Assembly (NCBI GenBank): GCA_039796155.1
Contig: JBDKKJ010000005.1
Span: 1 to 48,237 of the forward strand
From: Candidatus Parcubacteria bacterium
GTDB taxonomy: Bacteria > Patescibacteriota > Minisyncoccia > Phycocordibacterales > UBA6065
DNA: 48,237 bases
Reading direction: 5' to 3'
In this document: positions 19,378 through 20,304 of the stretch, one piece after another
How positions within the stretch are numbered: the stretch's first letter is position 1
Layout: each line of letters opens with the position of its first letter
Translations under genes and position numbers: made by a program
The notes under the pieces: generated by a model
Databases searched by the model: none
Told to the model about the DNA's origin: nothing
Seen by the model: the letters and a program-made list of their open reading frames with translations, nothing else

Positions 19378-19818
19378 ATGGAAAGCAAAGTAATCACATC
19401 CCCTATAGATATGGCCGCACGAGCAAAACTCGCGCTCCGTTCAGGCGATACAGTTCGCGTATGGCAGAAAATCAAGGAAGGTGACAAAACACGTCTTCAG
19501 GCCTTTGAAGGACTTATCCTTTCTCGAAAGCACGGTGATGAAGCAGGTGCTACATTCACAGTTCGAAAGGTAATAGACGGAGTAGGTGTAGAACGCATCT
19601 TCCCTCTTTACTCTCCAATGATTGATGAAATCGAAACTGTTCGAAAATCAAAGGTACGACGATCAAAACTCTATTTCGTACGAGAAAAGGCAACAAAGGA
19701 AATCCGACGCCAAATGCGAAACCTCCGAGCAGACAAGACAGCAAAGACAGACGTTGTAAAGAAAGGTACAAAGGTAGAAAAGAAAGAAGTAGAACCAGCT
19801 CCGGTAGAAGTAAAGTAA
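19378..19818 (+). CDS. rplS: 50S ribosomal protein bL19 with Lys-rich C-terminal tail
   Basis: [38 protein letters not shown] and KVRRSKLYF. Confidence 0.97.
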
Positions 19819-19822
19819 ATAA

Positions 19823-19854
19823 AAAAAACCACCGACCACTGTCGGTGGTTTTTT
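19823..19854 (+). terminator. Intrinsic terminator after rplS
   Basis: aaaaaaccaccgac-cact-gtcggtggtttttt. Confidence 0.85.
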
Positions 19855-19979
19855 GTTGTCCATGCTGCGATTCCATAAAAGTGTTGCTGAACTCACTAAG
19901 AATGGGCTGGATTTTATTATTCCTTTATCTCTCATTTTGTAAGATATCGAAGACGGAAGATTGGTAATCTTTACGTCGT

Positions 19980-20049
19980 GGGCATGCTAGTGGCCTAGAC
20001 CCTCAGCCTTACCATCTGAGGGGTGCGGGTTCGATCCCCGTCATGTCCA
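19980..20049 (+). ncRNA. Non-canonical tRNA-like element (pseudo-tRNA or tRNA-like domain of a ~185-nt ncRNA)
   Basis: Acceptor gggcatg/catgtcc+A, mini D-arm ctag-tggc-ctag, 7-bp arm ccctcag/ctgaggg with 9-nt loop, T-arm gcggg-TTCGATC-cccgt. Confidence 0.6.
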
Positions 20050-20106
20050 TGCACTTGAAAAAGTCCCCCGCATCCCTTATCATATCCATGTGGTAAGGCT
20101 GGGGGC

Positions 20107-20134
20107 CAAAACCGTTCCGAGAGGAACGGTTTTG
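20107..20134 (+). terminator. Terminator-like hairpin closing the tRNA-like transcript
   Basis: caaaaccgttcc-gaga-ggaacggttttg. Confidence 0.7.
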
Positions 20135-20218: not shown

Positions 20219-20300
20219 GCGCGGATGGTGGAATTGGCAGACACACTACCTTGAGGTGGTAGCGCCGTAAGGCATGGAGGTTCAAGTCCTCTTCCGCGCA
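20219..20300 (+). tRNA. tRNA-Leu(GAG), long variable arm, no encoded CCA
   Basis: gcgcgga/tccgcgc acceptor, ctacc-tt-GAG-gt-ggtag, variable arm gcc-gtaa-ggc, T-loop TTCAAGT. Confidence 0.94.
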
Positions 20301-20304
20301 CACG

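Follow-up and report, generated by a model that had tools for sequence, protein, structure and literature searches.

The window analysed here, 48,237 nucleotides of contig JBDKKJ010000005.1 from a Candidatus Parcubacteria bacterium (assembly GCA_039796155.1, genome G000 below), carries between the ribosomal protein gene rplS and a tRNA-Leu gene a cassette without any conserved ORF, in which a tRNA-like RNA with its leader hairpin is followed by a second, short predicted transcription unit (Table 1).

Table 1. Features of the cassette and its surroundings (window coordinates).
Feature	Position	Strand	Remarks
rplS (L19)	19378..19818	+	TIGR01024 match; context, outside the cassette
Intrinsic terminator of rplS	19822..19854	+	from sequence; shields the cassette from read-through
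Predicted promoter of the tRNA-like RNA	19913..19945	+	-10 TAAGAT at 19940-19945; consensus -35 absent
TTTAT direct repeats of the upstream promoter	19913-19917, 19924-19928	+	11 bp apart
5' leader hairpin	19952..19977	+	loop TGGTAA at 19962-19967, complementary to the anticodon loop
tRNA-like RNA, 70 nt	19980..20049	+	CCA not encoded, to be added
Acceptor stem, 7 bp	19980-19986/20042-20048	+	G1-C72, G2-C71, G3.U70; A73 at 20049
D region of the tRNA-like RNA			4-bp D stem, 4-nt loop; without 8-9 linker
Anticodon arm	loop 20007-20015	+	7-8-bp stem; 9-nt loop
Likely anticodon ACC	20011..20013	+	reads Gly codon GGU; conserved A next at 20014
3' half of the tRNA-like RNA			1-2-nt connector, then canonical T arm
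Internal sigma70 promoter	20055..20083	+	-35 TTGAAA at 20055-20060, 17-bp spacer, -10 TATCAT at 20078-20083
Predicted antisense RNA, ~45 nt	20090..20134	+	own intrinsic terminator at 20107-20134
Antisense stretch x anticodon arm	20090-20105 x 20000-20015		16 bp, 14 of them Watson-Crick
'Second hairpin'	20065..20105	+	duplex of promoter spacer and antisense stretch
tRNA-Leu(GAG)	20219..20301	+	ARAGORN; intact neighbour with own promoter; context

An initial sequence-only reading of the locus had described one structured transcript of ~185 nt. Its leader hairpin, acceptor, D stem, arm with a 9-nt loop, T arm and terminator were all found in place, and the AlaRS identity set G1-C72, G2-C71, G3.U70 and A73 was confirmed in the window sequence. 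Taken alone, the 70-mer 19980-20049 folded into the cloverleaf as its MFE structure (-28.8 kcal/mol). The 183-mer was also far more stable than its shuffled versions (z -6.6; 0/200 shuffles as good), but in the predicted equilibrium of the full 183-nt RNA the cloverleaf was lost and 20090-20105 paired with 20000-20015, thereby covering the 5' strand of the anticodon stem together with its loop, to both of which it is complementary. The region is not read here as a single transcript: the main point overlooked before is that the 3' part, judging from its sequence, has a promoter of its own and yields an antisense RNA to the anticodon arm. The 'second hairpin' described between the cloverleaf and the terminator does exist as a pairing in the window, but it overlaps the internal sigma70 promoter and is not general in the family: the duplex with the spacer was strong in L010 and L012 (-20.3 and -19.5 kcal/mol), while the other 19 of 21 were weaker than -13 kcal/mol, so that folding predicts it for the window copy and one close relative only.

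ARAGORN called neither a tRNA nor a tmRNA at 19980-20049 of the window, and the connector-free members of the family were generally not called as tRNA by ARAGORN or RF00005. In Rfam, the only match over the element was to tmRNA and sub-threshold, at 16.8 bits where the cut-off is 47 and the true ssrA scores 78.8; the C4/CI, T-box, YrlA Y RNA and DUF3800 motif models gave no match over 19980-20049 at E<=10 and none at gathering score in 10 member loci. The tRNA-like domain of tmRNA and mt-tmRNA (RF00023) has G3.U70, A73, the T arm, a reduced D region and a long helix in common with the element, and typical of tmRNA are an open D loop without a stem and a conserved GAC before helix P2. A minimal tmRNA had been proposed as one reading, from the 5' layout with its GAC. 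It was dismissed, as was a permuted tmRNA: unlike in tmRNA, the D stem covaries, the anticodon loop is closed, a tag frame is missing and GAC is present in only 4/51 family members, while elsewhere in the source genome smpB and, directly behind it, ssrA are both intact. From canonical tRNA-Ala, with which it shares G3.U70 and A73 (51/51), the element differs by the missing U8-N9 linker, the 7-8-bp anticodon stem and the 9-nt loop, with AGC in only 2/51 members in the favoured register. The missing CCA, to which attention had been drawn, is indeed not encoded but hardly unusual, since CCA is encoded in only 8/31 tRNA genes parsed from the genome.

BLAST of relatives retrieved homologues of the element in other genomes and a second copy in G000 (L023; G000:C2:94026-94095, minus strand), which lies between a TatD-like gene and metG, carries AUC (Asp) as its loop triplet and is followed downstream by a partner of its own. 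From 13 homologues a covariance model was built, which separated members (>=59 bits) from ordinary tRNAs (<=47 bits) in 61 relatives. With 33-82 candidates scored per genome and the genomes being incomplete, members were present in at least 12/61 genomes of relatives, at least 10/22 in the genus, at least 9/151 drawn from the order and at least 4/151 from the phylum (G000 included in these counts), two or three copies per genome being common. The named records belonged for the most part to Patescibacteria, and among the matches listed a record of Eremiobacteraeota held two units in tandem; the genome and metagenome scans and the two viral scans give matches listed only, making this range a lower bound. 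BLAST against a phage collection gave no match, and against plasmids only two ordinary tRNA-Gly genes. The broad pattern scans hit mainly 3' ends of tmRNA and ordinary tRNA-Ala and were sorted by covariance score and by eye. For the working set of 51 distinct sequences eight rows were left out: L222 (an ordinary tRNA-Ala), L218 and L219 (duplicates), and L099, L188, L200, L202 and L207 (covariance score <50, no partner found). A 67-nt match at G017:C8:101968-102034 (+) scored 44.5 bits, between members and ordinary tRNAs, and is possibly a fourth copy there.

The family fold is a four-way junction without the 8-9 or 26 connector, in which the D stem has 4 bp, the anticodon stem 8 bp and its loop 9 nt, with a single nucleotide leading over to the T arm; the acceptor branch is 7/5 in all members. 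Homologues and covariation had been named as a check, and all four stems covaried. Among the 21 gap-free 70-nt members, two-sided changes occurred at 18/24 pairs with 95.4% of cells paired (0/500 shuffles, slid controls also nowhere near), the D stem being 100% paired and showing changes on both sides at each of its 4 pairs. G3.U70 and A73 were invariant (51/51), and G51-C63, a pair with a role in EF-Tu binding, was present in 50/51. The proposal of an alanine-chargeable tRNA mimic is thus strongly supported at the level of sequence comparison.

The predicted second RNA likewise recurs throughout the family and covaries with the loop. A pairing score >=11 with the anticodon arm was reached by 39/51 own flanks against 53/2550 foreign flanks, although the members are kin and permutation tests therefore overstate the significance. 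At score >=10, partners were located downstream in 22 members, upstream in 14 and convergently in 5 (including one chance match, L226). In the convergent layout the partner lies downstream on the opposite strand with a terminator common to the tRNA gene, and in the upstream layout its terminator faces the tRNA promoter, so that in both it can act only in trans. A promoter-led local partner was found beside 48/51 members, and a sigma70-like promoter preceded the antisense stretch in 39/43 members against 535/8600 shuffles (score >=9, two mis-picked rows excluded). In multi-copy genomes the own partner scored best in most paralog sets: the predicted binding energies in G000 were -18.1 and -15.2 kcal/mol for the cognate and -8.8 and -2.8 kcal/mol for the crossed combinations, -18.1 and -8.8 being those of the window antisense RNA with its own tRNA-like RNA and with the paralog, respectively. 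As a control, a partner-like stretch was detected in fetched loci beside 4/268 tRNAs with G3.U70, U33 and an Ala anticodon (one of the four being a misfiled family member) against 25/93 other G3.U70 genes.

The 12 members scoring below 11 were mostly accounted for individually. Five of them (L016, L028, L038, L294 and L326) have promoter-led partners with 9-17 bp at the loop, L226 is covered by the partner of its neighbour and L217 is cut by the contig end. The variant partners of L039, L041, L231 and L232, convergent in the latter two, pair with the 3' strand of the acceptor and CCA besides a short match to the loop, a design which, by its sequence, would block charging. The L041 partner matches a CCA which the L041 gene does not encode and may be read as a single hint of CCA addition. 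For L021 no partner was found in the flanks and its sole genome-wide candidate has no promoter; genome-wide perfect partners of L021, L231 and L232 were limited to the elements themselves and one unpromoted match per genome. The idea that a member with an Ala anticodon would have lost its partner was tested and dropped; L075 with the cognate anticodon AGC keeps a 17-bp partner and L041, also AGC, its variant one.

The leader hairpin follows the anticodon loop in the same manner. Pairing of own leaders with the loop summed up to 239 against 210.4 +/- 6.0 in permutations (0/20000 as high; 50 members, L016 standing one base out of register), and the co-change persisted without the commonest loop (p 0.0005, 30 members); paralogs within one genome showed the same co-change of loop with partner and leader. 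An exact complement of loop positions 4-7 was present in 26/50 own against 103/1916 foreign leaders, the complement being centred on positions 4-8 (26 and 24 of 50, against 13/50 for positions 3-6). In the window the leader hairpin has a predicted triloop GGU, the codon for ACC, and it is a predicted cis mask that RNase P would remove. A read-through transcript is also predicted to pair the loop with the 3' stretch at a probability >=0.8 in 16/21 members of the downstream layout.

A -10 element of the upstream promoter was recognised in 42/50 assessable members, in which T-richness peaks at -50, -39 and -28. T-rich repeats at an 11-bp period without a -35 are arranged as in a site for an OmpR/PhoB-type activator; going by these motifs the promoter is likely activator-dependent, a step of the reading that is weak. 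G000 encodes one OmpR-family regulator (C12:31040-31729) beside a short histidine kinase (C12:31040-32486). A PWM scan of the genome with the upstream motif ranked the window copy 155 of 20423 and the paralog 2, and gave no coherent gene set as a regulon. Its top match (G000:C7:119841, minus) lies directly before a 130-aa ORF resembling a PemK/MazF-type toxin.

The 9-nt loop allows three anticodon registers, from which positions 5-7 fit best, since they obey the rules of tRNAs: pyrimidines before, A after in 50/51 members, and a distance of 11 nt from the T stem (39/51). The triplets in this register are ACC (26), GUC (11), GAC (5), GCC (3), AUC (3), AGC (2) and GCU (1), i.e. non-Ala in 49/51 members if the register is correct, and position 33 is C in 14/51. 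At positions 3-5, a stop-reading triplet is present in 30/51 members and an Ala triplet in 0/51. The earlier statement that the loop has no Ala anticodon therefore holds for the window triplet, but the loop does contain a decodable anticodon.

Cousins of canonical tRNA length also bear on the register. Among the matches listed, G3.U70 tRNAs with GUC included L236-L238, L241, L255, L262, L263, L268, L272, L281, L293, L295, L301, L303, L306, L315, L319, L321 and L339, while L135, from an Acidobacteriaceae record, has a GCG anticodon. In the GUC cousins and L135 a promoter, antisense stretch and terminator are located ~100 nt downstream, ARAGORN calling tRNA-Asp, and the GUC cousins would be the cleanest test case for Asp-to-Ala miscoding as far as sequence can tell. 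The matches listed from viral contigs included cousins with 7-nt loops, L591 (GUC) and L615 (AUC), and the connector-free members L663 and L689; canonical cloverleaves with G3.U70, GUC or AUC and such a unit thus occur on bacterial, metagenome and viral contigs. Since canonical-shaped cousins of this layout set the anticodon to ACC (Gly, the group described next) or GUC/AUC (Asp), the window RNA most likely combines alanine identity with a Gly anticodon. A34 reportedly never occurs in normal tRNA-Gly, according to the available part of PMC7293025.

A third group on metagenome contigs (among the matches listed L242, L244, L250, L251, L254, L278, L286, L287, L292 and L309) has G3.U70, an ACC anticodon and a mismatched anticodon stem and is called tRNA-Gly(ACC) by ARAGORN, with three copies within 1.2 kb in L254. 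It is flanked upstream by short promoter-terminator unit(s) with TTGGTA and downstream by a conserved hairpin whose loop displays this complement again, both loop complements being only 6-8 nt long. L699, L202, L188, L207 and L099 are shortened G3.U70 genes with no partner detected.

The source genome (672 kb, 88.9% complete) has a normal tRNA-Ala(UGC), AlaRS, a gene of the CCA-enzyme family and RnpA, while a match of RF00010 for the RNase P RNA was not obtained from this incomplete assembly. Among its 31 parsed tRNAs G3.U70 is confined to tRNA-Ala. TadA was not found in G000 and only a ComEB-like deaminase matched, from which A34 is probably unmodified. The tRNA set includes tRNA-Arg(GCG) in place of ACG, and a tRNA-Ile(UAU) call was obtained at C7:94415-94489 (minus). 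GGU is the commonest Gly codon (3.27% of codons). Nine sequencing runs came into question, all with shares <0.1; the four compared cover neighbouring tRNAs of other organisms, the element being covered in 0/4.

The comparison therefore reveals the four-stem fold with G3.U70 and A73, a cognate antisense unit in three layouts with paralog specificity, a leader loop displaying the codon, and a patchy multi-copy spread with no partner protein. As far as sequences can establish it, this is a real, conserved and apparently unpublished two-RNA module, with an architecture well supported by comparison and a function that is deduced. In a full-text literature search, which left most subscription papers outside its scope, neither a description of such a module nor a natural antisense RNA whose function is to silence a tRNA was found. 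The reading favoured here, by a small margin above even chances, is an RNA-only pair of an alanine-charged miscoding tRNA toxin and an antisense antitoxin, as suggested by the presumably constitutive, paralog-specific antisense RNA, the seemingly regulated and doubly masked partner, the patchy multi-copy spread and the absence of a protein. The conserved elements of the tRNA-like RNA (G3.U70, A73, the T arm and G51-C63) are the ones that charging and delivery would require, and both masks are aimed at the anticodon. It is an evenly balanced question whether the modules form an undescribed protein-free class of toxin-antitoxin or anti-phage systems, in which a tRNA rewrites Gly or Asp as Ala and is held by an anticodon-plugging antisense antidote; such a class would be widespread, extending at least to Patescibacteria, one Eremiobacterota and one Acidobacteriaceae genome, metagenomes and viral contigs. 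That its modules evade tRNA finders or are mis-annotated as ordinary tRNA-Asp or tRNA-Gly has, within the same reading, an equal chance of being right or wrong.

In the proposed mechanism the antisense RNA would be made constantly from its consensus sigma70 promoter, and the upstream promoter, with 11-bp repeats and no -35, would be switched on by an activator. The precursor would be doubly masked, by the leader loop on the anticodon and, in the downstream layout, also by the 3' stretch folded back, until RNase P, 3' trimming and CCA addition would release a 73-nt RNA to be charged by AlaRS and delivered by EF-Tu. The antisense RNA would kiss the loop, unzip the 5' strand of the stem and so silence the tRNA-like RNA. 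Induction of the latter, or decay of the antisense RNA upon cassette loss, transcription shut-off or phage attack, would free the toxin, and misreading of Gly as Ala (Asp as Ala in other members) would slow or stop growth. According to the accessible sections of PMC9976931, G3.U70 is the major AlaRS determinant and non-proteinogenic tRNAs alter the pairs 49-65 and 51-63; natural miscoding tRNAs were reported to halt growth of E. coli in the accessible text of PMC5389517. On the other side, the 9-nt loop, with C at position 33 in 14/51, and the missing connectors might fail to decode in frame, and miscoding cannot be the whole story for L075 and L041, which have an Ala anticodon (AGC) and yet keep their partners. 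L021 with no promoter-led partner, the missing RF00010 match in G000 and the lack of a coherent regulon also weigh against the reading. The pairs G49.U65 and C50-G64 belong to the tRNA-Sec box, by which EF-Tu is rejected (PMC9976931, as far as available), an objection weakened by the presence of the same two pairs in the own tRNA-Ala of G000.

The general logic resembles the type I loci hok/sok and tisB/istR, with their constitutive antisense RNA, self-masked and regulated toxin mRNA, paralog-specific pairs and patchy spread; the type I toxin is a small protein, while the cassette has no conserved ORF. Closer in this respect is type VIII (CreT/CreA; SdsR/RyeA), where adjacent RNA genes on the same or opposite strand likewise operate without a protein toxin (PMC10767807, accessible part). 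Here, too, the sequence shows neighbouring RNA genes with no protein product and a partner-specific putative antitoxin RNA, promoters and pairing being predicted; unlike in type VIII, as described in that part of PMC10767807, the toxin would be a chargeable tRNA and the antidote would act on the anticodon arm, with no CRISPR effector. CreTA and SdsR-RyeA are the validated type VIII systems (same source and extent), and the present module, if the favoured reading is true, would be a third kind of RNA-only toxin-antitoxin system.

On the tRNA side, allo-tRNAs similarly combine a Ser or Ala (G3.U70) identity with a mismatched anticodon at the sequence level, are toxic in E. coli and have been seen in the vicinity of toxin-antitoxin genes; their acceptor branches, however, are 8/4 or 9/3 (PMC5389517, accessible text), against 7/5 without connectors and with a 9-nt loop here. 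The words 'antisense' and 'complementary' are absent from the main text of that paper, while its supplements on irregular tRNA polycistrons may bear on the canonical-shaped group. The tRNA-ProX of Streptomyces and Kitasatospora are dual-identity mistranslating tRNAs which, as here, have A34 in the anticodon and an unusual residue at 33, differing by the Pro identity and a dedicated ProRSx next door, with no antisense partner mentioned in the portion available (PMC11415595). The available text of reviews of non-canonical and mistranslating tRNAs gave 0 matches for 'antisense' (PMC7609411, PMC11415595). If true, the favoured reading would also mean that bacteria mistranslate in a controlled way, as a weapon or to switch to dormancy; it would assign a function to non-coding DNA of the very small Patescibacteria genomes and define a minimal connector-free tRNA fold; the ~300-bp module would be a compact, orthogonal and sequence-programmable decoding switch.

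The strongest alternative, although rather unlikely, keeps the two-RNA logic and lets the charged mimic do its harm otherwise, by frameshifting or stop read-through, by jamming the A site or by titrating EF-Tu or AlaRS. It would accommodate the two AGC members with their partners, the stop-reading and never Ala triplets at positions 3-5, and the four variant antisense RNAs covering the acceptor and CCA besides the loop. What disfavours it is that the canonical cousins with 7-nt loops show the same loop motif and antisense unit together with a plain GUC, AUC or ACC anticodon, and that the leader complement is centred on positions 4-8 and not on 3-6.

A benign, regulated alanine carrier, either an SmpB-binding mimic of tmRNA or an Ala donor for ribosome rescue or for the alanylation of cell wall or lipids, turned off by the antisense RNA, is less probable still. 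The invariant alanine identity, the regulated appearance of the upstream promoter, the weak RF00023 score and a 9-nt stretch of the D region shared by the window copy and the G000 tmRNA are compatible with such a role; against it stand the intact ssrA and smpB, the covarying D stem and the rarity of GAC (4/51), the absence of a conserved neighbouring enzyme and the targeting by both masks of an anticodon which would be unused in such roles. The paralog-specific partners and the patchy spread (10/22 genus genomes) fit a selfish module better.

C4 of phage P1 and CI of P4 are RNase P-processed antisense RNAs, and by analogy with them and with the T-box the roles could be reversed, the tRNA-like RNA being the regulator and the short transcript the attenuator leader of a gene located downstream. 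The order of promoter, complementary stretch and terminator is that of an attenuator, but a conserved downstream gene is missing, many neighbours are oppositely oriented, and the terminator is common to the tRNA gene in the convergent layout and faces the tRNA promoter in the upstream one; with no C4 or T-box match in Rfam over the element and the invariant G3.U70 left unexplained, this is quite improbable. A single transcript, in which the 3' stretch folds back in cis to gate maturation and the internal promoter is incidental, would agree with the loop/3' pairing predicted for read-through RNAs in 16/21 members of the downstream layout; such a fold-back is impossible in the upstream and convergent layouts and the promoters were found in 39/43 members, leaving it a very small probability.

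The position behind rplS, which had been taken as a landmark for collecting homologues, turned out to be incidental: there the cassette is present in 3/20 assessable genus genomes and absent in 17/20, and across the family no conserved neighbouring protein was found and the neighbours of other members are unrelated, so that a functional link to rplS was dropped. In at least 12 of the 17 cassette-less sites tRNA-Leu directly follows rplS (sequence read by eye), and a terminator-like hairpin is located behind rplS at the empty sites as well, which makes the cassette a ~300-bp insertion without a duplicated tRNA end; the insert is protein-free and the adjacent tRNA-Leu intact and unrelated. That the element is a decaying copy of a tRNA or what remains of an integration site, as the insertion might suggest, is hardly tenable and largely refuted by the covariation of four stems (two-sided changes at 18/24 pairs) and of the partner, with no integrase or duplicated tRNA end at the site and no match in the phage collection. 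In L497 and L498, from two genomes of the genus, the rplS/tRNA-Leu site is followed by an ORF resembling, by eye, a LAGLIDADG-type homing endonuclease, suggesting an insertion hot spot.
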